A stretch of DNA of 64,000 nt from Acidobacteriota bacterium. GTDB taxonomy: Bacteria > Acidobacteriota > Thermoanaerobaculia > Multivoradales > UBA5704. The stretch is taken from NCBI GenBank assembly GCA_040349255.1, contig JBEQUE010000010.1, positions 68,216-132,215 on the forward strand, read 5' to 3'. Below the pieces are notes generated by a model. It saw only the letters and a list, made by a program, of their open reading frames with translations. It was not told where the DNA came from and made no database searches. The position numbers were made by a program, and so were the translations under genes. Below are positions 3,201 to 56,840 of the stretch, in pieces (position 1 is the stretch's first letter; each line of letters begins with the position of its first letter).

Positions 3201-3469
3201 GTCTTCGTCATCTCCTCGGGCGCCTCCGAGGCGAAGCGCGGGAACTCCCGATGCAGGAAGTCCTGGAACTCGGGCGTCCCGGCGAGATCGTCGAGGCTGC
3301 GCCAGAGCTCGTTGCCGCGCTTCTCGCGCAGGCGCTCGCGGACCGTTTCGAGATCCAGGCGCGCCGGCTCCGGCTGCGCGGCCGCCTCGGCGCCGCACTT
3401 CCCTTTGCTTGGATTCAGGATATCCATCCGATTTGGCTCGCTCCCGCTCGATTGATCCCGAAAAATCAT
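269..3469 (-). CDS. actB: Alternative complex III subunit ActB: Tat-exported molybdopterin-oxidoreductase-like domain fused to a 4Fe-4S ferredoxin domain
   Basis: Frame of ORF 269..3781(-). Twin-arginine signal SRRRFLQLTSASLALAGLTGC. C-terminal Cys clusters CTGCSSCMIACQAENN, CMQCENAPCEVVCP, CVGTRYCSNNCPYKVRRFN and CTYCVQR. Start placed at ATG 3469, which forms an ATGA overlap with the actA stop. ATG 3427 (MDILNPSKG) is an alternative. The longer track start lies inside actA. Confidence 0.9.
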   Translation of the reverse strand: MIFRDQSSGSEPNRMDILNPSKGKCGAEAAAQPEPARLDLETVRERLREKRGNELWRSLDDLAGTPEFQDFLHREFPRFASEAPEEMTKTDGVSRRRFLQLTSASLALAGLTGCTKQPNEAIIPYVKQPEYIVPGRPLFFATTLTHGGYARGVLAESHMGRPTKIEGNPDHPASLGATDVFDQAAVLTLYDPERSQSIVHNGRIGTWGAFVGEAGARLRALEALGGEGVRILTGTITSPTMAAQLQDLLARFPNARWHQWEPAGSHHGRAAAQAAFGQPLETRYDFGAARVVLALDSDVLTRGPGNVRYQRDFARTRRVRKDNLQMSRLYAVESVPTNTGTLADHRLPLPAPEVEVFALALAQALGVVSGGGAGAGDVLADARAKRWLPVIAADLKANAGAALVVADEYASPATQVLVHAINQALGNTGRTVFHTAPVEVIPANGADQVESMRQLVADMNAGRVELLLMLGGVNPLYTAPADLGFTQALQKVDLRVHHGLYEDETSEYCHWHIPAAHELESWGDARSFDGTVSLMQPLIDPLYSGRTAIEILAVLFANRADATSYEVVRDHWKTLLVGDFEAAWKKALHDGLIADIPATQLPPAGASMAGGAAQAAASAMVRSLQQVRQHPGMVTLRLRPDPMVGDGSLAPNPWLQELPKPMTKLTWDNALTVGPAMAERLKLVHEDMAEVTWNGRKVKAAVWVLPGQAEGTAELTLGYGRRRAGRATGLGFDAYPLRTTQALWNLPGAEIRPLGERYSFASTQNHHALESGAEEIPLAGNEAERRELIRTGTLEELRRHPDFIQEEREKPAPDETLYPPVEYKGHAWGMAIDLNVCTGCSSCMIACQAENNIPVVGKEQVLRGREMHWIRVDRYYSGDMDDPRIHNQPVPCMQCENAPCEVVCPVAATSHSDEGLNDMVYNRCVGTRYCSNNCPYKVRRFNFLRYSDRDTPVLALLQNPDVTVRMRGVMEKCTYCVQRIEQAKIESKVENRPIPANRLQTACQQACPTEAIVFGDINDPRWEVTKWKADPLNYGLLEELNTRPRTTYLAKISNPNPALEAEHGDH

Positions 3470-4122
3470 CGGTGACACGTCGAGCAGCTCGTGAGTGACT
3501 GGATTTTGTAGTCCTTGACCAGCTTCGCGCGCAGCGCCTGCGCCTCCTGCGGGTCCGCAGGCGGCTGCCAGTTGAGGTTGAAGACCTCTTCCTTCGGCCG
3601 CACGAACCTGCCGGGGTCGCGGTGGCAGCTCAGGCACCACTCCATCTGGAGCGACGCCTCCTGATACAGGAGCGGCATGCGGTCCACCTGGCCGTGGCAG
3701 CTCGCGCAGCCGATCCCCTTCGCCACGTGGACGCTGTGGTTGAAGTAGACGAAGTCCGGCAGGTCGTGGACTCTCTGCCACTGGATCGGCACGCCGGTGG
3801 CGAAGCTCGACCGCACGGGCTCCAGCATGTCCGCGTTCGTCCAGATCTGCCGGTGGCAGTTCATGCAGGTCTCGGTCGGCGGCATGCCGGCGAAGCTGGA
3901 GGTCTCGACCGAGGAGTGGCAGTACCGGCAGTCGATGCCCATGCCGGCGACGTGGTGGACGTGGCTGAACGGGATCGGCTGGTTGCGCACGATGCCCTGG
4001 CCCGTGGCATAGGACGACCGGAGCAGGGTCGAGAAGATCCAGGCGAAGAAGGCGATGAAGAACACCGCCCCGAAGATGCTGACCTTGGCGATCGTGTTCG
4101 TGCTGCGGTGGAAGATCTGCAT
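3466..4122 (-). CDS. actA: Alternative complex III pentaheme cytochrome c subunit ActA
   Basis: 218 aa. N-terminal TM helix (IFGAVFFIAFFAWIFSTLL). Five CxxCH heme motifs (CRYCH, CMNCH, CASCH, CLSCH, CSTCH). Sits immediately upstream of actB on the same strand. Confidence 0.9.
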   Translation of the reverse strand: MQIFHRSTNTIAKVSIFGAVFFIAFFAWIFSTLLRSSYATGQGIVRNQPIPFSHVHHVAGMGIDCRYCHSSVETSSFAGMPPTETCMNCHRQIWTNADMLEPVRSSFATGVPIQWQRVHDLPDFVYFNHSVHVAKGIGCASCHGQVDRMPLLYQEASLQMEWCLSCHRDPGRFVRPKEEVFNLNWQPPADPQEAQALRAKLVKDYKIQSLTSCSTCHR

Positions 4123-4323
4123 CCGGATGGCCCCCCTAACCTCCCAGCTCCATGCGAAGGGACTTTGTGAAAGTCGTCACAAGCGAACGCATCCTATCCA
4201 AACGGGCGTCTTCGTGCAAGACGGGTGCCCTGGAGTTGATCCCATCCTCCTTCTCCCCGGCCCTCTCCTCGCGCGGCGAGGGAGAGGGAGCCCCCGGCAC
4301 GTCCCTTGCTGTAGGTGGTGACC

Positions 4324-9158: not shown

Positions 9159-10373
9159 CTACTTCACAGCCGTCTTGTAGGCCTTCCGGAACGCCTGATA
9201 GGCGGCCTTGAACTGGCCTGACGCCATCAGCGCATCCCCCTGTTCGAGGACCTTCTGGGCTCCTCCGATGCTCTCTCCAGAGGCCTGGATGTTGGCCAGG
9301 GTCCTGGCCACGACCTCGCGCACGAGGTCGAGACGCCCGCACTGGCCTCCCGAGCAGACCGAGCCCGGCGTCAGATACAGCGCCAGAGGAACCGCGTTGT
9401 CGGCCGTGGCCAGATCGGCCTCGATCTGCGTCCGCAGGATGAGGTCTCTCAACTCGTTCTTGTTGGCATTTGCGTTGGCGATGATCGCATCCCGGTTCGC
9501 ATTGTCGTTGGCGATGATCTGGGCGGCTCTGGAGTTGGTGTTGGCGTTGATCTCTGCGGCCCTGGTATCGGTATTGGCGTTGATCAGGTTCCTGTTGGCG
9601 TTGTCATTGGCGATGATCGCTGCCTCGGCCGCGTCGACGTTGCTGTTGATCGCCGCCGTGTTGGAATTGTCGTTCGCGATGCTGGTCTCCAGGTTGGAGT
9701 GGATGTGAGCCAGCCGGTCGTAGCTGCCCTCGATCTCGGCGGAGTCGATATCTCCGTCGCAGAACGCGAGAGCCTGGTTGGCGGCCTTGGCCACGATGTA
9801 GACGGCGTCGGTGACAAGGCAGACCAGCGAGCCGTTCCCCCCTTCTCCCAGAACCACGACGGTCTCGTCACAAGCGCGGCTGGCCTCCTCGCGAACGGTC
9901 TCCGCGACGAACAGGGCCGCCTCGGAAGCTGCCATGACGGCCGAGTCCTGGCGGGTGCTGCCGCAGAACGAATAGGCCGCGGAAGGGAGCTCCTCGCCGC
10001 CCGCCAGCACGGACGCGGTCCTGTTCGAGATACCGCCCTGCGACTGCCGTGCGACGCGCAACCGGAGCTCTTGAGCGCTCGCCTTCATCATCGACAAATC
10101 CGAGATCTCCCGGTCAAGGGCCATGAGATCTTCCGGCGAGGCGCTTTCGATCCGCTTGCGGGCGTTCTCGATCAACGCACGGTTCGAGCTTCCAAGAGGC
10201 GTCATCTCGGCGAGATCCTGATAGGCATCGACCGTCTCGATCAACTCGCCGCGGATCTGCTCGACATCGGAGGCCGAGTGCTCATTCTCCGCCTGCAAGC
10301 CGTTGGCGCAGAGCAGAGCGCCCACGACGGCAAGAGTGATCGCAGCCTGGCGGAATCGGGGGTTGAGGTTCAT
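9159..10373 (-). CDS. Secreted protein of unknown function with seven 11-residue (hendecad) Asn/Ala repeats
   Basis: Signal peptide MNLNPRFRQAAITLAVVGALLCANGLQA. Several Cys. Residues 232-308 form 7 x 11 aa repeats (IANDNSNTAAI NSNVDAAEAAI IANDNANRNLI NANTDTRAAEI NANTNSRAAQI IANDNANRDAI IANANANKNEL). No family recognised. Confidence 0.7.
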   Translation of the reverse strand: MNLNPRFRQAAITLAVVGALLCANGLQAENEHSASDVEQIRGELIETVDAYQDLAEMTPLGSSNRALIENARKRIESASPEDLMALDREISDLSMMKASAQELRLRVARQSQGGISNRTASVLAGGEELPSAAYSFCGSTRQDSAVMAASEAALFVAETVREEASRACDETVVVLGEGGNGSLVCLVTDAVYIVAKAANQALAFCDGDIDSAEIEGSYDRLAHIHSNLETSIANDNSNTAAINSNVDAAEAAIIANDNANRNLINANTDTRAAEINANTNSRAAQIIANDNANRDAIIANANANKNELRDLILRTQIEADLATADNAVPLALYLTPGSVCSGGQCGRLDLVREVVARTLANIQASGESIGGAQKVLEQGDALMASGQFKAAYQAFRKAYKTAVK

Positions 10374-10600
10374 GGCCGCTTCTCCTTATTCGGGCAGCTC
10401 GCGTCATGCGAGGCCTGTTTTCTGAATGGCCCCGCCAGGAGCAAACGACGGGCCATGCCCGAGAGTGTCGATAAGTAGCTGGAATGACAACTGGTTAGAG
10501 GCGTAAAAGAGCCGTGCCGGCCATGCTCTGTCCGGGACTGTCAGAACGCGCCCGGACTGTTCTGACTGTGTCAGCCTGAAACCGGCTTCCGCGTCATCCC

Positions 10601-10860
10601 GATAAGCCCGTTCCGCGCCGGATGACGTTGTTTTCCGGCGGATAAGCCTGTTCCGGGCTGGATAAGCGGACTTCGCCGTCGATAAGCCCGATCCGCGACG
10701 GATAAGCCTGTTCCGGCGTCGATAAGCCGACTTCTCGACGGATAAGCCGACTTCTCGACGGATAAGCCGACTTCGCAACAGATACGGCGAAGCCGCAACG
10801 GATCAGCCGGAGCTGCAATAAATAACGCTGCGTCGCCGCGGATAAGCTCGCTCCGCCTCC
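10601..10860. repeat. Tandem array, 13 units in exact 20-bp register, consensus GATAAGCCnnnTTCnnnnCG
   Basis: Read directly from the sequence: gataagcccgttccgcgccg / gatgacgttgttttccggcg / gataagcctgttccgggctg / gataagcggacttcgccgtc / ... / gataagctcgctccgcctcc. Two identical neighbouring units at 10721-10760. Lies in the divergent intergenic region between 10373 and 10970. Confidence 0.9.
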
Positions 10861-10969: not shown

Positions 10970-11551
10970 ATGCGTCGCAACCAGAATCTTCTCGACCTCT
11001 TCCTCGAGCTCCAGATCCTCGACCGGGTGCCCAGAAGCGGCTATGTCCTGCGCGGTGTCCACGATCCCGAGAGCGTGACGGAGCACAGTTGGCACGTCCT
11101 CTTCCTGGTCTGGGCCCTGGGCAGCCGCATCGAGGGTATCGACCTCGCCCGCGCCGTCGAGATCGCTCTCGTTCATGACATCGCGGAGCTCCGGGTCGGA
11201 GACCTGCCGCGCACCGCCTCGCACTACTTTCCCGAAGGCGCCAAGAAGTCGGCCGAGCTCGCGGCCATGAGCGACGTCCTGGCCCCGCTTCCCGAGAACG
11301 CCCTCGACCGCTACCGCGAGTACCAGGACGGCGCCAGCCCCGAAGCCCGACTCGTCAAGGCCTGCGACAAGCTCCAGCTCATGCTCAAGGTCGCGGTCTA
11401 CGAGCGCTGGGGCACCGGAGCGCTCGCCGAGTTCTGGGACAACCCGGACAACTTCCCGGACCTCTCCGAGTCCGGCTTCGCGCCCGTCCGCGAGCTCTTC
11501 GAGGAGCTGCGGCGCCGGCACAACGCCAACGCGCTGCACCCGGAGCCCTGA
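10970..11551 (+). CDS. HD-domain phosphohydrolase (YfbR-like 5'-deoxynucleotidase family)
   Basis: RVPRSGY...ESVTEHSWHV...LVHDIAELRVGDL...KACDKLQ matches the H..HD..D metal-binding pattern of YfbR-type HD proteins. ATG at 10970 (MRRNQNLLDLF) chosen over the longer track start. Confidence 0.8.
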   Translation: MRRNQNLLDLFLELQILDRVPRSGYVLRGVHDPESVTEHSWHVLFLVWALGSRIEGIDLARAVEIALVHDIAELRVGDLPRTASHYFPEGAKKSAELAAMSDVLAPLPENALDRYREYQDGASPEARLVKACDKLQLMLKVAVYERWGTGALAEFWDNPDNFPDLSESGFAPVRELFEELRRRHNANALHPEP

Positions 11552-11611
11552 GGCCAAACGTGTTCATCCGTTCTGCTAAGATGAGGGTCATTGACAGTCA
11601 GGAGGCGTCAA

Positions 11612-11833
11612 GTGCCCCAGGTGAGTGCCCGGCTTCCAGAAGAGCTCGTCGAGGAAATGGATCGGGCCGCCGGCAGACTCCAGCGTACCCGGGCGGAGTT
11701 GATTCGCCAGGCGGTCGAATACTTCCTCGACGACTTCGAAGACCTTCAGCTTGGACTGGAGCGGCTCCAGGACCCGTCGGATCCCATTCTGGACTGGGCT
11801 GATGTCAGGCGCGAGCTACTCGGTCAGCATTAA
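11612..11833 (+). CDS. Ribbon-helix-helix (CopG/RelB-like) antitoxin
   Basis: VPQVSARLPEELVEEMDRAAGRLQRTRAELIRQAVEYFL is a typical RHH N-terminus. AGGAGG at 11600-11605 sits 6 nt before GTG 11612. Overlaps the downstream toxin gene by 32 nt. Confidence 0.75.
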   Translation: MPQVSARLPEELVEEMDRAAGRLQRTRAELIRQAVEYFLDDFEDLQLGLERLQDPSDPILDWADVRRELLGQH

Positions 11834-12065
11834 GGCGAGTGCCGCGAAATCGCTGAGCCGGATTCCCAAACCGGACCGGCAGCGTCTGGTCGAGGCGATC
11901 GACCGGCTCAGCGAGGAGCCTCTTGCCGGAGGCGTCCTCAAGGGCGAGTTCTCCGGACTGCGGCGCCTCCGGGTCGGAGTCTACCGAGTCGTCTACGAGG
12001 TGGTTCACGAGACGGTCACGGTTCTGGTGGTTCGAATCGGCCACCGCCGTGAAGTCTACCGCTGA
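11802..12065 (+). CDS. RelE/ParE-family toxin
   Basis: MSGASYSVSIKASAAKSLSRIPKPDRQRLVEAIDRLSEEPLAGGVLKGEFSGLRRLRVGVYRVVYEVVHETVTVLVVRIGHRREVY is a characteristic RelE/ParE fold signature (RxRVGDYRxxY...V..IGHR-like). ATG at 11802 lies within ORF 11751..12065. Confidence 0.8.
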   Translation: MSGASYSVSIKASAAKSLSRIPKPDRQRLVEAIDRLSEEPLAGGVLKGEFSGLRRLRVGVYRVVYEVVHETVTVLVVRIGHRREVYR

Positions 12066-12092
12066 CTCAAGAGCCTTCCAGCTTCGCCAGCC

Positions 12093-12704
12093 CTACTCGT
12101 CCACCTCGATCCCCCGCCGGCCCATCACCCTCTTGAGACGGTCGTAGAGGTTCTGCCCGAGGAGCGACTGCGCGGTCTCCGAGATGTCCTTCAGGACCAC
12201 GCGCAGGTCCTCGGCGCCGCTCCAGTGCTTGCGGGCGTAGGGCTCCAGGTCTCCGCCGAAGGCCTGCGACAGCACGGCCACGGCCAGGACCAGGTCGTCC
12301 AGGAAGCCCGCGCCGCCCAGGATCATCTCGGGCAGCAGGTCGGCCGGCAGGACGAAGTAGGCCAGCGCTCCGCCGATCATCGCCCGGGTGCCCCCGGGGA
12401 CGTTCTTGTCCAGGGCCAGCCGGACCAGCAGGATGAAGACGTCCGGCACCAGCAGCAGCGCGCGGACCGCGCCGTCGCCCAGCTTGCCGCCCCGCTTCTC
12501 CACCGCGTGGATGATCCGCTCGCGCAACCGGTCGTAGAACGACAGGAGGCCCTTGCTCGGCAGCTCCTCGTCGCTCGCGAAGGCATATTCGGAGTCGCGC
12601 TCGGCGCGCGCCGAGTCGAAATTCTCCAGGTCTTCCGCCACCGCCGTGGACAGCTCGTCCGACAGCGGGCGGCTCAGGGGCTCTTTGGTGGTCTCGTCGG
12701 CCAT
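12093..12704 (-). CDS. DUF1232 (YkvA-like) membrane protein
   Basis: Core LLLVPDVFILLVRLALDKNVPGGTRAMIGGALAYFVLPADLLPEMILGGAGFLDDLVLAV matches DUF1232 by eye. ATG 12704 with a GGGAGA RBS chosen over 12734. Confidence 0.65.
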   Translation of the reverse strand: MADETTKEPLSRPLSDELSTAVAEDLENFDSARAERDSEYAFASDEELPSKGLLSFYDRLRERIIHAVEKRGGKLGDGAVRALLLVPDVFILLVRLALDKNVPGGTRAMIGGALAYFVLPADLLPEMILGGAGFLDDLVLAVAVLSQAFGGDLEPYARKHWSGAEDLRVVLKDISETAQSLLGQNLYDRLKRVMGRRGIEVDE

Positions 12705-12756
12705 GGTTCTCCCTTCACGCGGTATCCCGTTCAAAATCCGTTCAAGCCGCGTGCCA

Positions 12757-13752
12757 CTAGAGAATATACGCCAGGGCGAACCCCACCTGACCCGCCATCA
12801 TGATCAGGTACATGTGCTTCCACGAAGGGTGGTTCTCCGTCTCCGTCAGCGAGTTCGGGTCGCGCAGCAGAAGATAGACGGTGTAGAGACCCCAGACCGT
12901 GAACAGCACGCCGAGCGCCACCAGGAGCCACGGGTTGCCGGTCAGAATGGCATGTTCCGGGTTCTGCGGGTCCTTCACAAAGGCCCCCAGCGGCATCAGC
13001 AGCCACGGGAACACGAAGAACGGACTGATCATCAGCGCCGATTTCTTCACTCCGTAGAGGATCGGCAGCGTCTTGCAGCCGCCGGCCCGGTCGCCCTCCA
13101 TGTCCGCGAAGTCCTTCGTGGACGCCGCGCCGAGGAGATAAAGGCCGAAGATCGAGCCGATGAACCACGGCTCGGTGTAGCCGATCCCCGCCACCATGGC
13201 CCAGCCCGCCACCTTGAGCAGCACGCCGCGCGGCACCGCGATCGTGAAGTTCGCCAGCATCCCGCGGATCTTCGTCCGGCCCAGCTCCGGCGCCGAGTAG
13301 ACGAAGGTCGCGATCATCCCGGCCAGGTAGATGAAGAAGGTCGCGTGCTCCGACACCGGCGCGGTCAGCTTCTGCCCCAGGGTGTCGTACGGGTGCGGCA
13401 CCACGAGCCAGGTCGGGATGAGCGCCAGCGCGTAGAGGATCCAGCTCAGCACCCAGACCTCGCGCACCGACAGCTCGCCGGTCACCAGCGGCCGGGTCGG
13501 CTTGTTCACCCGGTCGATCTCCAGGTCGTAGATCTGGTTGATCGCGTTCGACGCCGCGTTCATGAAGCTGGCGCAGAGCGAGCCCAGGATGACCGTGAGG
13601 ATGACGGAGAGCGTGATCTGCCGGTTCGGGTCCGGGTTGTGGACCGAGCCGAAGGCGCAGATCGCGCCCGAGACGATGCCGAGCAGCGGCGGCAGCAGGG
13701 TGAACGGCCGGACGAGCTGCAGGTAGAGGCTGGTTTTTGATCGGGTGGTCAT
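12757..13752 (-). CDS. UbiA-superfamily prenyltransferase (DGGGP-synthase / chlorophyll-synthase-like subgroup)
   Basis: MTTRSKTSLYLQLVRPFTLLPP... with the Asp-rich motif NAINQIYDLEIDRVNKPTRPLVTGELS and about 8 TM helices. True ATG at 13752 overlaps the upstream stop (ATGA). The 750-aa track ORF is an artefactual N-terminal extension. Confidence 0.85.
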   Translation of the reverse strand: MTTRSKTSLYLQLVRPFTLLPPLLGIVSGAICAFGSVHNPDPNRQITLSVILTVILGSLCASFMNAASNAINQIYDLEIDRVNKPTRPLVTGELSVREVWVLSWILYALALIPTWLVVPHPYDTLGQKLTAPVSEHATFFIYLAGMIATFVYSAPELGRTKIRGMLANFTIAVPRGVLLKVAGWAMVAGIGYTEPWFIGSIFGLYLLGAASTKDFADMEGDRAGGCKTLPILYGVKKSALMISPFFVFPWLLMPLGAFVKDPQNPEHAILTGNPWLLVALGVLFTVWGLYTVYLLLRDPNSLTETENHPSWKHMYLIMMAGQVGFALAYIL

Positions 13753-15098
13753 ACGATCCAGGGGGTGAAGATCACCGCGACGAGCGCGCCGACCAGGGTG
13801 TTGAGGAAGTTCAGCGCCTCGTTGTCGAGGAGCTGGCGCTTTTCGAGCGCCGCGCCCACGAGGCTCTCGAAGGTGGTGCCCACGAAGGCCGCCACCACGA
13901 TCGGCAGCACGCCGATCCACGGATAGAGCCCGACCAGCGCGCCGAGCCCGGCGATCACGGCAGAGGCGATCACGCCGGCCAGCGTCCCCTCGACCGACAC
14001 CGCGCCCTCGGTGCCGCGCGGCACCGGCTTGAAGTTGGTCAGGAGGAACGTGCGCCGGCCGAGCACCTGGCCGATCTCGCTCGACGAGGTGTCCGCCGCG
14101 GCTGTGGCGAAGGCGCCGGCGAAGGCCATGCCGAAGAGGACCGGGTGATCGGTCAGAGCGGCGAACACCGCGCAGGCCGTGGCCACGCCGGCATTGGCGA
14201 GCGCGTGGCGGGCCCCGCGCCGGCCGCCCCCCTCCTGCGCGATCTTCGCCGCGGCCTTGCTCTTGTAGCCGAACTTGGTGCAGGCGCTGCCGATCACGAA
14301 GAAGGAGAGGAGCAGCAGGTAGCCGCGCCAGTCCAGGAAGGCGTAGATCGTGAACCCGACCAGGAAGCCCACCACCACGCCGGACGTGTCGACCGTCCTC
14401 GCCTTGAAGGCCGCGCCGGCCAGCGCCGCGTTGACGACCACGGCCATCAGCAGCCGGAAGGCGAGACCGTCGGTCGCCAGGAACGGGCCCCAGTGACCCT
14501 GGGTCAGCACCAGGCCGAGCAGGAAGAGGCCCGAGACGAGCGGCACGCCGATGTTGTCGTCGAGCCCCTGCGGCAGCGATTCGAGCGCCGCCGCCACCAG
14601 CGCCGCGGCGAACGCGACGGCGAAGGCAAAGGGCCATGAGTATTCGCCAGGCGTCCAGCGAGCGGTCCACACCAGGAGCGCCGCCGCTGCGAAGCCTCCG
14701 AAGAAGACATAGGCGAGGCTGCCCATCCAGCTCTTCCTCGGGTTCCACGGCAGCTTGCGGCGGCCGAGCGTCATGCCCGCGACCGAGGCCATGCCGTCGC
14801 CGAACGCCAGGATGCCCCAGGTGGCCGCGGCCACCTCCAGCTTCTTGAAGAAGACCAGGATGAGGATGAGCACGGCGAGCGGGTAGAGCACGATGCCGAG
14901 CGAGGAGCCGGCGGCGTGCTCGTGGTCGCGATAGAGGCGCCGGCCGCCGATGCGCGGAAACAGGAACAGGTTGAAGGCCAGCGCCGAGGCCGCCAGCACC
15001 GCGGACCACAGCGGACCGAGCCAGCCGACCGCGAAGGCGAACAGCCCCATGCTCATGTGGGTCACCTTGCGCAGCAGCTCGTTGCCGGTCAGCGCCAT
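13749..15098 (-). CDS. Fusion protein: CTP-dependent polyprenol/phytol-kinase-like domain (N) + DUF92/TMEM19 (VTE6-like) domain (C)
   Basis: N-terminal motif FGDGMASVAGMTLGRRKLPWNPRKSWMGSLAY (dolichol/phytol kinase family). C-terminal motif AAADTSSSEIGQVLGRRTFLLTNFKPVPRGTEGAVSVEGTLAG (DUF92). Polytopic membrane protein. ATG 15098 (MALTGNELL) overlaps the upstream gene by 10 nt. Confidence 0.7.
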   Translation of the reverse strand: MALTGNELLRKVTHMSMGLFAFAVGWLGPLWSAVLAASALAFNLFLFPRIGGRRLYRDHEHAAGSSLGIVLYPLAVLILILVFFKKLEVAAATWGILAFGDGMASVAGMTLGRRKLPWNPRKSWMGSLAYVFFGGFAAAALLVWTARWTPGEYSWPFAFAVAFAAALVAAALESLPQGLDDNIGVPLVSGLFLLGLVLTQGHWGPFLATDGLAFRLLMAVVVNAALAGAAFKARTVDTSGVVVGFLVGFTIYAFLDWRGYLLLLSFFVIGSACTKFGYKSKAAAKIAQEGGGRRGARHALANAGVATACAVFAALTDHPVLFGMAFAGAFATAAADTSSSEIGQVLGRRTFLLTNFKPVPRGTEGAVSVEGTLAGVIASAVIAGLGALVGLYPWIGVLPIVVAAFVGTTFESLVGAALEKRQLLDNEALNFLNTLVGALVAVIFTPWIV

Positions 15099-16096
15099 TG
15101 GCCGCTCTCCTTGAGCCAGGCCAGCGTCTCGGCGAGCCCCTGCGCGAACGGCCGCGGGGCGTAGCCCAGCTCCCGCTCGGCGCGGTCCGAGCAATAGGCC
15201 CAGTCGTGCCGGTAGATCTCCACCAGGTCCGGGGTGAGCTTCGGCGTGCCGCCGGTGAGACGCGCCCAGCCCTTCTGCAGCGCGCCGGCCGTCTTCGCGA
15301 CCCCGTCCGGGATGCGCCGCTTCGGCACGGGCACGCCGGTCTGCTTCTCGACCAGGGCGTAGAAGTCGCCGAGCCGCACGTTCTCGCCGCCGAGCACGTA
15401 GCGCCCGCCGGCCGGAGCCTTTTCGAGCGCGAGCGCCACGCCGCGTGCCACGTCGCCGACGAAGGCGTAGTTCCAGCGCCGGTCCGGCGAGCCGATCAGG
15501 CCCGGCAGCTTCCGGCGGATGAGGTCGAGGATGTGATGGACGACGATGTTGCCCTCGGTCATCTCGCCCGGACCGTAGATGACGCCCGGGTAGACCACGT
15601 TGAGCGGCGCGCCTTCCGCGATCGCCCGGCGGGCGCGGCGGTCGGCGAGCGCCTTGGTGCGCTCGTAGTCGTTGATCCAGTTCCGATCCTGAATGTCGGC
15701 CGTCTCGTCGAGCAGGCCGCCCGGGCCTTTCTCCGTCGGGCCGAGCGCGATGAAGCTGGAGACGTAGACCACCTTGGAGACCGAGCCGGACTCCTCGGCG
15801 GCGCGCAGGACGTTCTCGAGGCCGCCCAGGTTGATGCGGTCGAAGTCGGCCGGCGGCGCCAGGATCTTGACCAATGCTGCGGCGTGGACGACGGCGTCGC
15901 AGCCGGCCGCGGCCCGGTCCAGGCTGGCGCGGTCGGTGACGTCGCCCTGCGCGAAGTCGATGATCGCCGGGGGGGCCGGGAAGCGCTCGCGGGATGCCGT
16001 GGGCCGGACGAGGAGGCGCACCTCGTGCTTCTGCGCGAGCTCGGAGACGATACGCCGCCCGAGGAATCCGGTGCCGCCGGTGACGAGGACCTTCAT
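15089..16096 (-). CDS. Extended-SDR NAD-dependent epimerase/reductase (HpnA / dihydroflavonol-reductase-like)
   Basis: MKVLVTGGTGFLGRRIV Rossmann motif and YERTK catalytic YxxxK. Length and C-terminal region resemble HpnA-type sugar epimerases. Confidence 0.8.
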   Translation of the reverse strand: MKVLVTGGTGFLGRRIVSELAQKHEVRLLVRPTASRERFPAPPAIIDFAQGDVTDRASLDRAAAGCDAVVHAAALVKILAPPADFDRINLGGLENVLRAAEESGSVSKVVYVSSFIALGPTEKGPGGLLDETADIQDRNWINDYERTKALADRRARRAIAEGAPLNVVYPGVIYGPGEMTEGNIVVHHILDLIRRKLPGLIGSPDRRWNYAFVGDVARGVALALEKAPAGGRYVLGGENVRLGDFYALVEKQTGVPVPKRRIPDGVAKTAGALQKGWARLTGGTPKLTPDLVEIYRHDWAYCSDRAERELGYAPRPFAQGLAETLAWLKESGQWR

Positions 16097-18917: not shown

Positions 18918-19022
18918 GGGATTGATCTCATCAGGGTTGAAACCGGTCCAGACGGTCCTTCAGCGGCCCGCATTGTATGCGGAGAGACCCGGTTTGGCGA
19001 CACCCGGTCTCCGGGTTGCGGT

Positions 19023-19814
19023 TCAGCCGCGTCCGCGGAGGCGGTCGAGCTCGGCCTGCAGGCTTGCGTTTTCGGCCTCGACCGCCTTGCGGGCTTCGAC
19101 CGCTGCCCGCGCAAGGTCCTTCTCTTCCTGCCGGGTCAGGAGAGGCTTGCCCGAAGGGTGCTCGGACATCCGAACGCGGTTGCCATCCGGAGTGACCTGG
19201 AACCAGAGGCCGGTCGTCTCGGAGAGCAGGCGCCCCTCCTCATCCGGCTCGATCGGCTGGTATCCCGAGGGGCCCAGCCGGTAGCCGAGAAGCCGGTAGC
19301 GGCGATCCCGGCGCTGGCAGTCGGCGATCAGGTACTCGGGGATCCCGACCCGCCGATAGAGGGCGACCTTGTCTTCCAGGTCGGTCTTGCGGATGCGGGA
19401 GGACAAGGGCGAAACCACCTCGATCACGAGACAGGGACGGACGCCTTGCGCGGCGACGTCGAAGCTCTCTCGGTCGGCCTCCTTGTCGCGCACGCCGCGG
19501 ATCACCGAGACGTCGGGGGACGGCTGGTCCAGCCCTGGACCGAACAGGAACTTGAGATCGAACGTGACCAGCACGTCCGGGACCGGCTGGAAGAAGTCGT
19601 CCAGCAGATCGGCGATCTGGCGTGCGGTGTCGCCGTGACGTTTTCCCTGGGACATGTGGTCGCCGACCTGGGGGTTCAGGAACAGCTCGGGAGTCAGGGG
19701 CATCACGACCAGCTCCATCCGGCCACCGGGACGTTCCACCCAACGCTCCAAGGTGATCCCCGGCTCCTCGTCGAGGAGCTCGTGTTCGATCGGCTTGCGG
19801 ACAGGTTCAGCCAT
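19023..19814 (-). CDS. Uma2-family (DUF820) restriction-endonuclease-like protein with coiled-coil tail, copy 1
   Basis: PD-(D/E)xK-like core PDVSVIRGV...PCLVIEVVSPLSSRIRKTDLEDKVALYRRVGIPEYLIAD typical of the Uma2 family. ATG 19814 (MAEPVRKPIE) lies 7 nt after a TATACT box. Close paralog of 21840..22631. Confidence 0.75.
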   Translation of the reverse strand: MAEPVRKPIEHELLDEEPGITLERWVERPGGRMELVVMPLTPELFLNPQVGDHMSQGKRHGDTARQIADLLDDFFQPVPDVLVTFDLKFLFGPGLDQPSPDVSVIRGVRDKEADRESFDVAAQGVRPCLVIEVVSPLSSRIRKTDLEDKVALYRRVGIPEYLIADCQRRDRRYRLLGYRLGPSGYQPIEPDEEGRLLSETTGLWFQVTPDGNRVRMSEHPSGKPLLTRQEEKDLARAAVEARKAVEAENASLQAELDRLRGRG

Positions 19815-19821
19815 GACCCCG

Positions 19822-19850
19822 AGTATAGACAGTCGCCCGAGACCCGTCAA
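19822..19850 (-). promoter_or_regulatory. Sigma70-type promoter TTGACG-17-TATACT, apparently driving a leaderless Uma2 mRNA
   Basis: On the minus strand: TTGACG (19850-19845), 17-nt spacer, TATACT (19827-19822), then 7 nt to ATG 19814. No room for an RBS. An identical element precedes copy 2. Confidence 0.5.
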
Positions 19851-20075
19851 AGATATCGCGGAAAGGAGACGAAGGGAAGGGGGCGACGCGGAAAGACGTC
19901 ACCAGCCTACGCAATCCCCACCTCGCGGAGTCCCAGAATAGATGCCCCCTATGAGAGCATGATAATAATCACTGCGATCGTTAGTTTCGCGCTAGCATAC
20001 GATGGCGAGGTTTGGAGGCCAGTCGCCTAACACAAGGCCTCAAGCGCCTGACGGCCCCGCCTAGGCCCGGATCGT

Positions 20076-21035
20076 TTGGCGGTCAGAGACGGATTCTTGA
20101 ATCTACGTGATCTCTTTAGAGTCTTCTCCTGGCGGCAACCGCCAGTGCCGACTTCGGCGCCTGCGCGGCCACTTACCCAGGCGTTCCGAACGCGAGTCGT
20201 GATGCGCGTCATGGACCGCTTCAGTGGAGAGGACAATCCATTCGGCGGCAGCGACTATCGCGGTGACTTCTGGCTGGCCATTCACAAGAGACTCCAGTAC
20301 CTCCACGGCGTTTCCGTCCTGGCTCCAGAAGCGCGCCCCAACTCCCCGCCAGACGATGCCATTGCCTTCCTCACTAACTGTTCTGACGACCACTTTCTCG
20401 ATTTCATCGAGCTCATTTTTAAGCTGGAGTTCTACTGGCGTGCCGTAAGAGACGAGAACTCGTTGGTAGACGACATCAATCACTTCTTTGAACTCGACGC
20501 ACTTCCCTATGCGCTAACCTCCTTCGTCCGCGAGGAACGAATCGAGGACTACCGAGGTACTCCTACCACTGCGTCATATCTAACAGAATTTCCTCGGGTA
20601 ATTCGCCGCGACAGCCAAGTGACACATGCTCAAGCAGTCGCACCGGCGTTGCAGCTGCTTGCGGACAAGAGGTTCGCCTCGGCCAACCGCGAGTTTCTTG
20701 AAGCCTTGGAGGACTTCCGGAAACGCGACTACGACGACTGCCTCGTAAAGTGTGGCAGCGCCTTCGAGAGTGCCCTCAAACTCATCTGTGAAACAAAGGG
20801 CTGGCCTTACAAGCAATCCGATACGGCAAAGACCTTGCTCCAGACCGTTATCTCCAACTCTACGCTGGACCCATACTTTGAGCAGCCGCTCTTGGTTATC
20901 GCCATACTCAGGAACCGCGAAAGCACCGCTCATGGAGCGGGTGTCCATGCCCGCAACGTACCGCCACAGCGTGCGCAGTTCGCGATCAACGCCACGGCCG
21001 CGGGCATCCTCCTCGTGGTTCAAGAATGCCTCTGA
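20076..21035 (+). CDS. AbiJ-like HEPN-domain protein (AbiJ N-terminal-domain-like + C-terminal HEPN)
   Basis: C-terminal RNRESTAHG fits the HEPN Rx4-6H motif. N-terminal FRVFSWRQ...LTQAFRTRVVMRVMD resembles AbiJ-NTD4-type openings (recollection). Visibly more A/T-rich than its flanks. TTG start at 20076 is uncertain (TTG 20097 also possible). Confidence 0.6.
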   Translation: MAVRDGFLNLRDLFRVFSWRQPPVPTSAPARPLTQAFRTRVVMRVMDRFSGEDNPFGGSDYRGDFWLAIHKRLQYLHGVSVLAPEARPNSPPDDAIAFLTNCSDDHFLDFIELIFKLEFYWRAVRDENSLVDDINHFFELDALPYALTSFVREERIEDYRGTPTTASYLTEFPRVIRRDSQVTHAQAVAPALQLLADKRFASANREFLEALEDFRKRDYDDCLVKCGSAFESALKLICETKGWPYKQSDTAKTLLQTVISNSTLDPYFEQPLLVIAILRNRESTAHGAGVHARNVPPQRAQFAINATAAGILLVVQECL

Positions 21036-21300
21036 TATATGTGGCCGGGACCAATCCCCGGGAATTGACACACAGCATATCAGCATTGCCAACAATGGCG
21101 GCAGACTCAGGACGAAGCTCTCCTCCGTGGCGTCGTCTGAGCCATAGAACGTTCTCCGAGAGCCTGCCTGCCGGATTCCCGGCGAAACCCAGGTCCGCCG
21201 AGGCCAATCGACGGCTGAAAGCTCGCCTATCTGCCGCGCAAGCAGGCTCGGCGGACAGTCCGTCCAGCTTATCGAAGGCGGTTGTCGACTTCTCCGCGGG

Positions 21301-21821
21301 CCGGTAAGGTTACCGGGGACGCGACAATCTTGTCTGGCGCCGTACAAAGTCTGGCAGGCGGCAGACAGGCTTGTCTGTCGCAAACAAGGTTGACGGGAGA
21401 GAGGCTCGACTTATTTCGCCGCGCGACAAGCTTATCCATGGCGCGATAAGCTTATCCACCGCTCGCTAACGTTATCGGGGACCCGACAAGCTTGTCGGAG
21501 GCAAGACAAGCTTGTCAGCCTCCAAGACAGGGTTGTCGGCGGCAAGAAAACGTTAGCAGGAGCCAGCACAACGTTATCCGCGGCAAGTCAAGGTTGCTGG
21601 CCGGCAAACAAGGTTGTCTCGCCGTAGATAAGCTTTAGGGACCGGAAAGCAACGTTGGCTCGCCGCCGACAACCTTGTCGGCGACCAAACAACCTTGTCG
21701 GCTTCCAGGACAAGGTTGTCGGCGCCCGGATAACGTTATGAGCAGCCCGGATAATGTTATCCGCGGCAAATCAAGGTTGTCTCGCCGCAGATAAGCTTGT
21801 CAGCCTTCCCACAAGCCTTCG
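21301..21821. repeat. Tandem array of 26 units with 19-21 bp centre-to-centre spacing, each with a 12-bp quasi-palindrome GAYAAS-STTRTC
   Basis: Hand-mapped cores include GACAATCTTGTC 21323-21334, GATAAGCTTATC 21445-21456, GACAAGCTTGTC 21485-21496 and 21505-21516, GACAACCTTGTC 21668-21679, GACAAGGTTGTC 21709-21720 and GATAAGCTTGTC 21790-21801. Lies between the convergent 3' ends of the HEPN gene and Uma2 copy 2. Confidence 0.9.
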
Positions 21822-21839
21822 CCGTAACCCGCCAGGCAC

Positions 21840-22631
21840 CTATCGCGGGCCGCGGAGGCGATCGAGCTCCGCCCGGAGCCGGGCGACCTCATCCTCGGCA
21901 ACCCGCGCTTTCTCTTCGGCCGCGCTGCGCAGGTCCGCCTCTTCGTCATGGGTCAGGAGAAGCCGGCCGGATGGGTGCTCGAACGTCCGTACGTGATCGC
22001 CGTCGGGAGTGACCTGGAACCAGAGGCCGGTCGTCTCGGAGAGGAAGCGCTCCTGCTCGTCCAGCTCGACCCTTTGATACCCGGAGGAGCCCAGTCGATA
22101 GCCGAGGAGGCGGTAGTGGCGATCGTGGCGCTGGCAGTCGACGATCAGGTACTCCTGGATTCCGACGCGCCGATAGAGCGCGACTTTGTCCTCCATGTCG
22201 GTCTTGCGGATACGGGAGGACAGGGGCGAGACGACTTCGACGACCAGGCAGGGGCGGACGCCCTCGGCGGCGATGTCGAAGCTCTTCCGGTCGGCCTTCT
22301 TGTCGCGCACGCCGCGGATCACCGACACATCGGGAGAAGGCTGCGACAGGCCCGGACCGAAGCGGTGCTGGACATCATAGGTGACCACAACGTCAGGGAT
22401 GGGGCCAAAGAAACGAACCAGAGCGCCGTAGATCTCGTACACGGTCTCGCCGTGGCGCTTTCCCTGGGTCATGTGGTCGCCGAACCGGGGGTTCAGGAAC
22501 AGCTCGGGCGTCAGCGGCATCTCGACCAGCTCCATCCGGCCACCGGGACGTTCGACCCAGCGCTCCAGGGTCATCCCCGGCTCCTCGTCGAGGAGATCGG
22601 ATTCGATCGGCTTGCGGACAGGTTCAGCCAT
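21840..22631 (-). CDS. Uma2-family (DUF820) restriction-endonuclease-like protein with coiled-coil tail, copy 2
   Basis: Same architecture and mostly identical sequence to 19023..19814 (MAEPVRKPIESDLLDEEPGMTLERWVERPGGRMEL...). Same promoter and leaderless context. Confidence 0.75.
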   Translation of the reverse strand: MAEPVRKPIESDLLDEEPGMTLERWVERPGGRMELVEMPLTPELFLNPRFGDHMTQGKRHGETVYEIYGALVRFFGPIPDVVVTYDVQHRFGPGLSQPSPDVSVIRGVRDKKADRKSFDIAAEGVRPCLVVEVVSPLSSRIRKTDMEDKVALYRRVGIQEYLIVDCQRHDRHYRLLGYRLGSSGYQRVELDEQERFLSETTGLWFQVTPDGDHVRTFEHPSGRLLLTHDEEADLRSAAEEKARVAEDEVARLRAELDRLRGPR

Positions 22632-22638
22632 GACCCCG

Positions 22639-22667
22639 AGTATAGACAGTCGCCCGAGACCCGTCAA
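22639..22667 (-). promoter_or_regulatory. Sigma70-type promoter TTGACG-17-TATACT, leaderless arrangement (copy 2)
   Basis: TTGACG 22667-22662, 17-nt spacer, TATACT 22644-22639, then 7 nt (cggggtc) to ATG 22631. Confidence 0.5.
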
Positions 22668-22726
22668 AGATATCGCGGAGAGGAGACGAAGGGAAGAGGG
22701 CGACGCCGAAAGGCGTCACGCAGCGG

Positions 22727-23806
22727 CTACGTGATCCCGACCTCCGAGTTGTCGCCGAGCATGAAGCGATACGCCTTGGGCTTGAAGTCGGTCTTGGTGA
22801 TCCGGACGTTCCGGCCGATGAGCGAGCCGTCGATCCGCAGCGGCACGTCCCGGATCTCCGAGTCCTGCAGGATGATCGAGTTCTCCACCTCGCAGCAGAC
22901 CAGCGTGCAGCGCGGGCCGATCGAGGTGTAGGGGCCGACGAAGGTGTTCTCCAGGCGCGTGCCGGCGCCGATCACGACCGGACCGCGCACCAGCGAATCG
23001 ATCAGCTCGACCCCCTCTCCCAGCTCCACCCGGCCTTCGATCCGGCTCCCCTTGCCGACCGTTCCCGGCAGCCCCGCGTCGAGCCCTTCGAGCACGATGC
23101 GGTTGGCCTCCAGCATGTCCTCCAGCTTGCCGGTGTCCTTCCACCAGCCGCGGACGATGTGCGGATGGACCTGGAGACCCCGGTCGATCAGGTCCTGGAT
23201 GGCGTCCGTGATCTCCAGCTCGCCGCGGGCCGAGGGCTTGATGCGGTGGACCGACTCGAAGATCGTCTTGTCGAACATGTAGACGCCGACCAGCGCCAGG
23301 TTGCTCTTCGGCTCCTTCGGCTTCTCGACCAGGCGATGGACCTTGCCTTCGGGAGTCAGCTCGGCCACGCCGAACTGCTCGGGGTGCGGCACCTCGGCGA
23401 GCAGGATCTCGGAGCTGCAGGCGCCGCGGCCGTGGAGGGCGCGGAACTCGTCCACCAGGCCCGTGATGCCGCCGGCGATCAGGTTGTCGCCCAGGTACAT
23501 GACGAACGGCGAGCCTGCCATGAACTCCTCGGCGATCATGACCGCATGGGCGAGGCCGCGCGGCGCGTCCTGCTCCAGGTAGGTGACGCGGGCGCCGAAG
23601 CGCGAGCCGTCGCCGACCGCGGCCCGGATCTCCTCGCGGGTCTCGCCCACCACGATGCCGATCTCCGCAATGCCGGCCGCCACGATCGCCTCGATCGCGT
23701 AGAACAGCACCGGCTTGTTCGCCACCGGCACGAGCTGCTTGGCGGACGTATAGGTGAGCGGGCGCAGGCGAGTGCCCTTGCCGCCCGAGAGGATCAAGCC
23801 CTTCAT
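22727..23806 (-). CDS. Long-form sugar-1-phosphate nucleotidyltransferase (glucose-1-phosphate thymidylyltransferase-like) with C-terminal left-handed beta-helix
   Basis: MKGLILSGGKGTRLRPLTYTSAKQLVPVANKPVLFYAIE is the canonical G1P-nucleotidyltransferase N-terminus. C-terminal hexapeptide-like repeats. GGAGG RBS before ATG 23806. Confidence 0.85.
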   Translation of the reverse strand: MKGLILSGGKGTRLRPLTYTSAKQLVPVANKPVLFYAIEAIVAAGIAEIGIVVGETREEIRAAVGDGSRFGARVTYLEQDAPRGLAHAVMIAEEFMAGSPFVMYLGDNLIAGGITGLVDEFRALHGRGACSSEILLAEVPHPEQFGVAELTPEGKVHRLVEKPKEPKSNLALVGVYMFDKTIFESVHRIKPSARGELEITDAIQDLIDRGLQVHPHIVRGWWKDTGKLEDMLEANRIVLEGLDAGLPGTVGKGSRIEGRVELGEGVELIDSLVRGPVVIGAGTRLENTFVGPYTSIGPRCTLVCCEVENSIILQDSEIRDVPLRIDGSLIGRNVRITKTDFKPKAYRFMLGDNSEVGIT

Positions 23807-34870: not shown

Positions 34871-34882
34871 CGGCGCCGCGAA

Positions 34883-35100
34883 GGGGATGACCCGCTCCCC
34901 GACCGTGGCACCGTGCCACGCGCGGGGCCGCCGCGCCACAGCCGGGGATGACCTTCTCCCCGACCGTGGCGCCGCGCCACACGCGGGGATGACTCGCTCC
35001 CCGACCGTGGCGCCGTGCCACGCGCGGGGCCGCCGCGCCACAGCCGGGGATGACCCGCTCCCCGACCGTGGCGCCGCGCCACGCGGCGTGGCGGCACAGC
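34883..35100. repeat. Tandem repeat: alternating 61-bp and 41-bp units (102-bp super-unit, about two copies) with embedded 7-1-7 palindromes
   Basis: Units start with GGGGATGAC at 34883, 34944, 34985 and 35046. Each carries GTGGC(A/G)C-C-G(T/C)GCCAC. The array is intergenic, between the lipoprotein gene and the DUF433 gene. Confidence 0.85.
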
Positions 35101-42082: not shown

Positions 42083-42118
42083 CCGACCTATCGACGACCG
42101 GATAGAAAGGAGACGGCG

Positions 42119-43129: not shown

Positions 43130-43164
43130 GGGCCTAGACGACCGAACGGAACAAGGAGACAGCG

Positions 43165-55631: not shown

Positions 55632-55991
55632 ATGGACGCGCAGGCCGATACCTTCCGAGCTTTTCATGCCAGACGGGAGCGGGCCCGCCTGGAGGAAAGG
55701 GAAAACTTGCGCCTCGACATCCTGGACCGCGCCAAGGCCGCAATTCTCCGGCAGGCTCCGGCGTTTCCCGCGATCCGGGCTGCCTATCTCTTTGGTTCGA
55801 TCCTCCAGCCGGGCCAATTTCACGAGGGCTCGGACGTCGACATCGCCATCGACTGCGACGACATCGGAGTCGAAACTCCGTTCTGGCGGGCTCTGGAGGA
55901 CGAGTTGCAGCGGAACGTCGATGTGCGTCCCCGCGAAGGCGCGGTGGCCCGGGCCGTCGAGGCCTACGGAGAGAAGGTCTATGGACGATAG
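55632..55991 (+). CDS. Minimal nucleotidyltransferase (MNT-type antitoxin-like)
   Basis: AYLFGSILQPGQFHEGSDVDIAID fits the GSx(n)DxD pol-beta-type NTase motif. 11-nt overlap with the downstream gene. Confidence 0.7.
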   Translation: MDAQADTFRAFHARRERARLEERENLRLDILDRAKAAILRQAPAFPAIRAAYLFGSILQPGQFHEGSDVDIAIDCDDIGVETPFWRALEDELQRNVDVRPREGAVARAVEAYGEKVYGR

Positions 55992-56448: not shown

Positions 56449-56509
56449 CGGCAGTGCGCGGCACTCCCGCGCGTGCCGTAATGCCTCTTTGGCACGACGG
56501 AGTTCTTTC

Positions 56510-56840
56510 CCGAAGACTCTCGGCAAACTGCCGAAAGGTCTCGGCGAGTTGCCGAGAGGTCTCGCCGTCTCCCGAGAACCCTCGGCGGGGCGCCGAGAGT
56601 CCTCGGCAAAGCGCCGCGGGTCCTCGGCAAAGGACCGAGAGTCCTCGGGAAGCGCCGAGAGCTCTCGACGAGACGCCGAAAGGTCTCAGAGACCGCCGAG
56701 AGGTCTCGGCGGCGCGCCGCAAGGTCTCGGGAAACGCCAAGGGCTTTCGGCAAACCGCCGAAACTCCTCGGCAAGGCGCCGAAAGGTCGCGGGAGACGCC
56801 GAGAGTCTTCGGCAAGGCGCCGAAAGGTCTCGGCAAAAGG
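56510..56840. repeat. Tandem array of 16 units of 20 or 21 bp, each with a 14-bp quasi-palindrome CCGARAnnTCTCGG
   Basis: Hand-parsed unit starts: 56510, 56531, 56552, 56572, 56593, 56614, 56635, 56655, 56676, 56696, 56717, 56737, 56758, 56779, 56799, 56820. Example units: ccgaaaggtctcggcgagttg, ccgagaggtctcggcggcgcg. The array ends 16 nt before the amylase ATG. Confidence 0.9.

Follow-up and report, generated by a model that had tools for sequence, protein, structure and literature searches.

Phased quasi-palindrome array between convergent genes in an Acidobacteriota genome and its dispersed relatives

What is a run of about 26 evenly spaced quasi-palindromes doing between the ends of two convergent genes in a bacterial chromosome? 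The question was raised by a stretch of 64,000 nucleotides from an Acidobacteriota bacterium of the Thermoanaerobaculia (GenBank assembly GCA_040349255.1, contig JBEQUE010000010.1, positions 68,216 to 132,215 of the forward strand), which we call the window, and in which the array occupies positions 21303-21821. A first, sequence-only reading had likened it to plasmid centromeres and iteron fields, and had also considered a binding platform for a dimeric protein. We found that the array belongs to a dispersed family, whose members keep the same unit order, occur in both orientations and lie in unrelated gene contexts, and that blocks of several units duplicate locally, as they have in the window. 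The answer that we favor, and toward which the evidence tips by a modest amount, is that the array is an old, end-truncated and internally duplicated copy of a minisatellite resembling a MITE (short for miniature inverted-repeat transposable element), that its dyads are reiterated pairs of protein half-sites, and that no locus-specific role attaches to it.

The array and its dispersed family

Between 21301 and 21821, the identity autocorrelation was 0.475 at a lag of 20 bp, 0.39 at 21, 0.458 at 41 and 0.428 at 61, against a background of about 0.22. A dynamic-programming chain placed 25 to 27 units with centers from 21308.5 to 21795.5, spaced 19 to 21 bp apart (mean 20.3), and a further degenerate unit is centered at 21815.5. 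Each of the approximately 26 units of 19-21 bp carries a 12-bp dyad, GAYAAS-STTRTC, and the units read (C)GAYAASSTTRTC(G). When up to one mismatch was allowed, GAYAASSTTRTC matched 20 times in the window, with 16 of the matches falling within 21323-21801, whereas 0.58 matches were expected in shuffled sequence and the maximum seen there was 3; a two-unit pattern had seven matches in the window against 0 expected. The autocorrelation, the unit chain and the shuffles thus confirm the roughly 26 phased quasi-palindromes at intervals of 19-21 bp that the sequence-only reading had mapped by hand. Its remarks on dyad symmetry recurring roughly every two helical turns, on the location between two convergent gene ends (given by the stops of an AbiJ-like gene on the + strand and a Uma2 gene on the − strand) and on the non-coding nature of the array, which contains only short open reading frames (ORFs) without a coding bias in third-position GC content (GC3), were also borne out. 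Clustered regularly interspaced short palindromic repeats (CRISPR) consist of 23-55-bp repeats parted by unique spacers of similar length, and the array was rightly set apart from them, given that its period is 20 bp and its linkers measure 8 bp and are themselves repeated. Two other statements did not survive. The linkers, which were said to be free to vary, share a consensus similar to GGCGGCAA, and their conservation between copies is about that of the cores. What was described as a single homogeneous run of units, which are only about 60-75% alike, is made up of a canonical element of 410 bp and, in addition, 7-9 units duplicated internally.

The whole copy of the element, as delimited by blastn against the copies in the metagenome-assembled genome (MAG) SMAG_U7022, spans 21227-21838 on the + strand; it is 612 bp long, compared with 535-589 bp for full copies, is truncated at both ends and is missing the terminal inverted repeats. 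Its canonical part (21227-21635, + strand) is colinear unit by unit with six SMAG_U7022 copies, at the loci that we designate L008, L010, L015, L021, L023 and L026, and because of this colinearity the window does not show a satellite grown on the spot, but a copy of a defined element. Identity to the SMAG_U7022 copies is 83-90% over 205-410 bp in the canonical part and 74-77% in 21666-21837. The remainder (21666-21838, + strand) consists of the internal block duplicate and the 3′ tail of the element: it is paralogous to 21483-21618, with 79.6% identity over 137 bp when the sequence is compared with itself by blastn, and it continues into the normal 3′ tail. On the other side, the spacer between the stop of the AbiJ-like gene and the start of the element homology (21036-21226) has no match to the leader or the left inverted repeat of full copies. 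Prediction of promoters and terminators in and around the array gave none.

A genome scan for two cores exactly 20 bp apart, with one genome per GTDB species, returned 31 loci. Arrays of 13-25 units account for 14 of them, and all 14 are in Acidobacteriota MAGs: six contigs of the Holophagales MAG SOY_29_metabat_132, six of the Thermoanaerobaculia MAG SMAG_U7022, and one each in SMAG_U15830 and in the Holophagales MAG MFD04935. The matches outside Acidobacteriota, in Pseudomonas, rhizobia and others, consist of 2-4 near-consensus cores, mostly isolated pairs, and include no arrays. In soil metagenomes from the Joint Genome Institute (JGI), the two-core pattern was found at 30 loci, 6 of which are arrays. 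A 29-mer specific to the family had no match in metagenomes, and a database of 72,556 plasmids held no match to the array. The family has been found so far only in Acidobacteriota (Thermoanaerobaculia and Holophagales) and is apparently undescribed; in the literature on the motif and on palindromic or tandem repeats of Acidobacteria, we found no description of these arrays.

The copies in SMAG_U7022 show what the dispersal looks like within a single genome. At least six of them, on six contigs, are colinear with the window, two are reversed, and their flanking genes are unrelated. Among the properties by which MITEs are recognized, a short length (<1 kb) and the absence of coding capacity apply to the window copy and to the full copies, and multiple dispersed copies in both orientations are present in SMAG_U7022. 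Repetition above the level of the single unit occurs as well, with higher-order repeats of 5-10 units at L038, L048, L060 and L064.

Ends, half-sites and the proposed origin

Two copies are complete, L008 3498-4086 and L015 2231-2765; they begin with CTAGTAGGGCGTCAACCTTGAAG and finish with TTGACAGCGTACTAG. The terminal inverted repeats, of about 30 bp, are imperfect, with 17 of 30 positions matching in L008 and 21 of 30 in L015. In both loci, CTAG bounds the two ends, and homology stops exactly at the outer CTAG on either side, beyond which the sequences are unrelated; L021 has the same right end. As a tetranucleotide, CTAG is scarce in these genomes (0.39 per kb), and the 8 kb of L008 contain only two, which are the two ends of the element. 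Moreover, in L008 and L015 alike, the left CTAG holds the TAG stop of the upstream gene on the + strand, and the right CTAG holds the stop (CTA) of the downstream gene on the − strand. The simplest reading of these sequences is that the element may have inserted into a CTAG common to the overlapping stops of convergent genes, with duplication of the CTAG. An insertion sequence of the IS5 family in a related genome (L062 12765-14292, with DUF772 and DDE_Tnp_1) has 27-bp terminal inverted repeats that are 93% complementary and are each bounded by CTAG on the outside, although the sequence of these repeats differs from that of the element. In Holophagales, three arrays finish with TTCGTAG, and one of those begins with CTACGAA. 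Read by eye, the inner portion of the terminal repeat, GTCAACCTTGAAG, agrees with the unit GACAACCTTGTCG at 10 of 13 positions. It is a variant form of that unit, and for this reason the array looks like a reiterated terminal motif.

The sequence-only reading had also stated that the arms of the palindromes co-vary. In a set of 14 arrays with 237 units altogether, right arms were exchanged at random between the units of the same array. Positions 3 and 10 formed 108 complementary pairs where 100.3 ± 5.4 were expected (P = 0.09); none of the other arm pairs exceeded expectation. In the window array alone, positions 3 and 10 are associated (Fisher p = 0.0055), but its units share descent through block duplication; co-variation is thus weak, being nominal there and not found across the 14 arrays, in which hybrid units such as GAGAAG-CTTATC are common. 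Because the arms do not co-vary under permutation, the half-sites behave independently; this suits contacts made by the single monomers of a dimeric protein better than it suits stem pairing. The array strand does fold strongly (−290 kcal/mol, z = −10.3 relative to shuffles), because any array of palindromes folds so.

Substitutions were compared between cores and linkers in three ways, none of which was significant. Relative to the family consensus, the window copy differs at 19 of 227 core positions and 21 of 150 linker positions (p = 0.09); variable columns within MAGs number 44 of 238 in cores and 36 of 165 in linkers; and the internal duplicate has mismatches at 15 of 84 core and 13 of 51 linker positions. 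The pattern looks like mostly neutral decay after copying.

These features suggest the following origin. The element would have been moved, now or formerly, in trans by a DDE transposase of the IS5 type that duplicates CTAG, and its internal dyads would be the terminal-repeat motif in reiterated form, that is, independent GAnAAS half-sites in pairs, to which a dimeric DNA-binding protein would attach. Unequal recombination or slippage could make such arrays grow and shrink. The window copy would then have landed in a variable, defense-type island between rfbA and rfbD, where it is probably decaying.

A small-protein gene, a common period and the rival explanations

An all-versus-all comparison of the ORFs that flank arrays brought out one recurring small protein, encoded at L022, L032/L050 and L038. 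It has 130 amino acids, with an invariant, basic C-terminal YGIRSEKL..F..KPFRGR followed by a proline-rich tail, and its predicted structure is a three-helix bundle (mean pLDDT 80.5). We found 161 homologues, of which those with a named source are from Thermoanaerobaculia. Two are labelled "DNA-binding protein H-NS" by JGI; homology to H-NS was rejected at an hhalign probability of 0.3%. Pfam, NCBIfam, PHROGs, a sequence search of the PDB and Foldseek all returned no match for the protein, and viral contigs contained neither a homologue of it nor an array.

What makes this protein relevant is the order of the sequences that follow its gene. In all eight homologues that we sampled starting from the protein, the gene is followed by an intrinsic terminator and then by a dyad array of 370-840 bp with a period of 20-21 bp (L062 10001-10990, L064 10001-11300, L065 6001-6900, L066 6001-6890, L068 10001-11140, L069 10001-11060, L073 6001-7330 and L074 3290-4216), and three more loci with the small gene (L022, L032 and L038) were reached starting from the array. 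Few other arrays are present in the approximately 106 kb of the first six protein-first loci. The core of the downstream array differs between lineages. In two of them, the small gene has the same argR neighbor and the array core is entirely different, so the position is conserved while the array sequence turns over. The association between the small gene and an array is real. Cores so unlike one another could not all be recognized sequence-specifically by the invariant motif. The arrays show no consistent asymmetry in AT or GC skew relative to the small gene, and the gene is absent from the 64-kb window. As a separate observation, L064 continues beyond its small-gene array with about 4 kb without called genes (11300-15398), in which further repeats, recurring about every 80 bp, occupy 12437-13727.

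The window itself contains three further arrays. The sequence-only reading had pointed out two of like architecture, and both are real. Array 1 (10595-10860) has a period of 20.0 bp and a GGATAAGCC half-site, and lies between the gene of a secreted repeat protein on the − strand and an HD hydrolase gene on the + strand; array 3 (56505-56840) has the core CCGAGA-GG-TCTCGG and a period of 20.6 bp, and is found after an MNT/HepT pair and before an alpha-amylase gene. To these we add array 4 (34880-35095), in which GGGGA-N8-TCCCC alternates with CGTGGCAC-C-GTGCCACG at a period of 41 bp (20 + 21), and which contains a 102-bp higher-order repeat with 95% identity. A gene ends before it at 34870, and an ORF starts after it at 35164 (MGEPWIVTKPGVLGGKPCIRG..), which by eye we take to be DUF433-like, no family library having been scanned. 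Outside the window, an array belonging to the third type (CCGAGAGGTCTCGG; 70% identity with window 56517-56800) occupies L021 650-975; it lies 300 bp from the type-2 element of that locus, just after a small ORF (approximately 479-651) with a CxxC motif in its product. Because L021 holds this copy, the family of the third type is also dispersed.

The period is what these arrays share. In all 14 arrays examined, the base period was 20.0-20.8 bp regardless of the core, and the cores with that period include GAYAAS-STTRTC, CCGAGA-GG-TCTCGG, GTCCCGGGAC, GATCCGCGGATC, ACGACGGnCCGTCGT, GGAAGCTTCC and CCAAGTCCACGACGGCTCAT. Several arrays reach a non-integer mean of 20.6-20.7 bp by mixing 20- and 21-bp units, with blocks of 41, 62, 103 and 124 bp; some are strictly periodic at 20.0 bp or 19 bp, and helical phasing is not universal. 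The common period points either to a shared reader or generator or to a DNA-level constraint of roughly two helical turns, and the dyads together with the 20-21-bp regularity imply a trans-acting reader.

Several of these observations weigh against the MITE-like origin that we favor. The window copy has neither the inverted repeats nor the CTAG ends, and the inverted repeats are also missing in L010, L023 and L026; the terminal structure is seen in two full copies and one right end only, and most arrays, including all of those next to the small-protein gene, have no recognizable ends. No autonomous element with matching terminal repeats turned up, the genomes not having been scanned for one, and, as filled sites alone were compared, the CTAGs may be either a duplicated target site or the outer bases of the inverted repeats themselves. 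Cores are marginally less substituted than linkers (pooled, 34/311 against 34/201), which may reflect weak constraint. The retention of an array after one small gene in eight of eight sampled genomes points to a host function for at least some arrays. Finally, four unrelated cores within 64 kb all have a spacing of 20-21 bp, which independent transposon families do not predict, and this common period across unrelated cores is the main feature that they leave unexplained. It is in these respects that a platform used by the host has to be considered, an idea that we think unlikely but take seriously: a small DNA-binding protein restricted to the lineage would load or nucleate on the arrays and polymerize at a pitch of about two helical turns, with the 130-amino-acid three-helix protein as the candidate, the window array as one platform of many, and a nucleoid-organizing, silencing or insulating role. 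The platform suggested by the sequence-only reading stays live on account of the independent half-sites, which vary as monomer contacts would, and of the non-integer period of about 20.6 bp in several arrays (means of 20.6-20.7 bp from mixed units, with lags of 41, 62, 103 and 124). The order of gene, terminator and array in all eight protein-first homologues and in the three array-first loci, the scarcity of other arrays around the first six, the position beside argR that is kept while the core turns over, and the naming of two family members as "DNA-binding protein H-NS" in their sources also favor it. However, a protein whose motif is invariant could not, as a single sequence-specific reader, serve cores that differ completely, four of them in one window. 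Similarity of the protein to H-NS, or to DNA-binding folds or families of any kind, was not detectable; its gene is not in the window, where the array is truncated and not conserved in position, and the strict 20.0-bp and 19-bp arrays do not follow helical phasing.

The remaining explanations treat the array as RNA, as a plasmid feature or as an antitoxin. An array of hairpins in RNA or single-stranded DNA, similar to repetitive extragenic palindromic (REP) sequences and blocking exonucleases or read-through at convergent 3′ ends, would account for the location between convergent gene ends in the window, L008, L015 and L022, for the strong predicted folding and for the dyad symmetry that is kept across families of different sequence. 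We nevertheless consider it improbable, as arms do not co-vary within arrays (108 against 100) and hybrids are common, a 4-bp stem would have the invariant AA..TT in its loop, many arrays follow a strong intrinsic terminator or occupy promoter regions, and a non-integer DNA period is meaningless for RNA; Rfam 15, at gathering score, has no match anywhere in the window, and the predictions mentioned above place no promoter or terminator at the array. Tandem dyad units that repeat at about every second helical turn do resemble a plasmid centromere or iteron field of the sopC or parC type, or a remnant of one, but this comparison, put forward by the sequence-only reading, is now disfavored to the point of being very improbable: no ParA, ParM, ParB or Rep gene is adjacent, the neighbors being AbiJ-like, Uma2 and rfb genes; the window carries housekeeping genes, including chromosomal LptD and Rfb genes, which leaves a plasmid-like nature unsupported; at least six copies occur per genome in unrelated contexts; and neither the 72,556 plasmids nor the viral contigs contain a match. 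ToxI-like arrays consist of near-identical repeats of about 36 nt placed directly upstream of, and co-oriented with, a toxin gene. The presence of a HEPN abortive-infection gene beside the window array, and of a HepT gene before array 3, makes one think of a type III RNA antitoxin for the adjacent AbiJ-like gene, to which we give almost no credence. The array lies downstream of the HEPN gene and extends to the convergent gene, rather than upstream of a toxin with a terminator between them; its 20-bp units share only some 60-75% of their positions; copies of the same family elsewhere have no HEPN gene, and arrays 1 and 4 have no HEPN neighbor.

Elements of the transposon-like and the platform explanations could also be combined, in an arrangement that we regard as rather unlikely. 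The conserved small protein, with the terminator and the satellite-like array that follow its gene, would be one part of a two-part chromosomal system of Thermoanaerobaculia not described before, and the dispersed arrays, among them the four in the window, would be the other part, as further platforms for the protein or its partners, giving a pairing of satellite DNA and satellite-binding protein that organizes or insulates chromatin. If this were true, MITE-like spread would be a way of seeding new platforms and not mere parasitism, and if the module of small protein and array reflects real binding, a nucleoid-associated system not known before would come to light in one of the major phyla of the soil. 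If, on the other hand, we are only dealing with MITEs that have trapped minisatellites, they would serve as markers of genome plasticity in a group of soil bacteria that is hard to culture, and as a warning against inferring function from neighboring genes.

Genomic setting and known systems

In the window, the array follows the AbiJ-like HEPN gene (20076-21035, + strand; Pfam DUF7014, AbiJ_NTD4 and Abi_C) and precedes the second of two Uma2 genes recognized by Pfam (21840-22667, − strand), which has 82% DNA identity with the first (19023-19850). Each Uma2 gene, together with about 75 bp upstream of it, forms part of a direct duplication (19033-19924 against 21850-22744, 82% identity) that brackets the AbiJ-like gene and the array. 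An exact-sequence look-up of the window's own proteins gave no record. Homologues of RfbA identify the source of the window as a bacterium of the Thermoanaerobaculia. With window proteins as tblastn queries, no homologues of Uma2, AbiJ, MNT, HepT or HD genes were found near 20 other arrays of the family, for which about 1-14 kb per locus was available, and the link to Uma2, HEPN or XRE genes that had been raised is therefore unsupported. The island between rfbA and rmlD (rfbD) comprises, at 19012-22729, Uma2, the AbiJ-like gene, the array and the second Uma2. In L072, the closest of the relatives compared, whose flanks have about 90-93% DNA identity to the window on the rfbA and rmlD sides alike, the corresponding island (1672-4317) contains a PIN gene, small ORFs and another array, with CCAAGTCCACGACGGCTCAT as its unit and a period of strictly 20.0 bp, and in L070 and L071, with RfbA 96% identical, two other small genes follow rfbA. 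Because these relatives differ there, the interval is a variable island in which the array is not conserved in position. Among the outcomes that the sequence-only reading had named as refuting it was a lack of conservation of position or architecture in any relative; position is not conserved, and architecture is.

Other observations concern the surroundings of the arrays. Those in the window tend toward accessory or defense-type neighborhoods, with MNT/HepT, ParE-like, AbiJ-like and Uma2 genes nearby; the MNT (Polbeta) and HepT pair near array 3 is at 55632-56448, and a ParE-like toxin near array 1 at 11751-12065. The secreted protein beside array 1 (gene 9159-10373, − strand) contains a 33/99-bp coding repeat at 9327-9842 (ANDNANR.. 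motifs) and has no Pfam match. Farther away, the segment 42093-44201 is low in GC (56-58% against about 67%) and has internal direct duplications (42093-42605 against 43137-43654, 68%; 42914-43116 against 43999-44201, 79%), and a 62-bp inverted repeat with 89% identity is formed by 59734-59795 and 59893-59954, with about 100 bp between the arms. One metagenome locus, L044, was discarded as a member of the family, as its two core pairs, 1.4 kb apart, proved to arise from terminal redundancy in a small and apparently circular contig that is unrelated. That 1.7-kb contig (1-1693) has a terminal redundancy of about 300 bp, implying a circle of about 1.4 kb, and contains one 192-amino-acid ORF and GACAACGTTGTC iterons beside a hairpin; it may be a small replicon unrelated to the arrays.

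Several known systems resemble these arrays in part. Resemblances to DnaA boxes, Fur boxes and H-NS motifs (TTATCC.., GATAAT hexamers and CGATAA) were dropped by eye, as spacing and flanks do not fit. The sopC site consists of twelve 43-bp repeats with a dyad in each, and parC of pSK41 and R1 of 10-20-bp iterons, and these are read by a dimeric centromere-binding protein. The arrays likewise consist of tandem phased dyad units, and the order in sop, in which the gene of the binding protein is followed by its array, recalls the module of small protein and array, but here there is no partition NTPase, the setting is chromosomal, the copies are many and dispersed, and the small protein has no ribbon-helix-helix, helix-turn-helix or ParB fold. 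With the centromeric satellites of eukaryotes, the arrays share higher-order blocks (41, 62, 103, 124 and 186 bp) and a fast turnover of sequence at a conserved position with unit length kept; unlike those satellites, they are bacterial, measure 0.25-0.85 kb and have no known kinetochore-like role.

REP sequences and bacterial interspersed mosaic elements (BIMEs) are closer. In Enterobacteria and Pseudomonas, these are hairpin palindromes of 20-40 bp with a GTAG or CGTC tag and alternating orientation, linked to REP-associated tyrosine transposases (RAYTs), and gyrase, IHF and Pol I are known to use their arrays as platforms. Like them, the arrays described here are species-specific extragenic palindromes, frequently placed at the 3′ ends of genes or where two genes converge, with an architecture that is conserved while the sequence differs between lineages. 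The dyads here are, however, of 12-16 bp, in strictly periodic runs of 13-30, with no REP-type tag on the units and no co-variation of arms. No Y1 transposase (RAYT) was recognized beside arrays in the loci with precomputed Pfam hits, the other flanking ORFs having only been compared with one another; a single weak Y1_Tnp gene (L069 15334-16143) is not flanked by units, and a link to RAYTs seems unlikely for these loci.

The claim that no described chromosomal family is like this one was too strong, as REP/BIME arrays and MITEs of the BrickBuilt type (PMC4596501) are close analogues, and the single-locus "centromere-like" puzzle can be recast as a member of an intergenic-repeat superfamily. 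BrickBuilt, in Porphyromonas gingivalis, is a MITE that encloses a minisatellite of 23 nt and has IS5-like terminal repeats (Klein et al. 2015, PMC4596501); it has 19 intergenic copies, and both ends are kept in 4 of the 19 (PMC4596501). The arrays differ from it in having a dyad in each unit, the words palindrome and hairpin not appearing in the BrickBuilt paper (PMC4596501), in the conservation of unit order between copies, in the presence of several unrelated families per genome at 20-21 bp and in the CTAG ends at stop codons, and they belong to a different phylum and have no sequence similarity to it. What the two have in common is that they are non-coding, always intergenic and dispersed, with about 20 copies per genome, and consist of tandem units of about 20 nt in variable number, set between a leader and a tail with IS5-like terminal inverted repeats, of which most copies have lost one or both ends.

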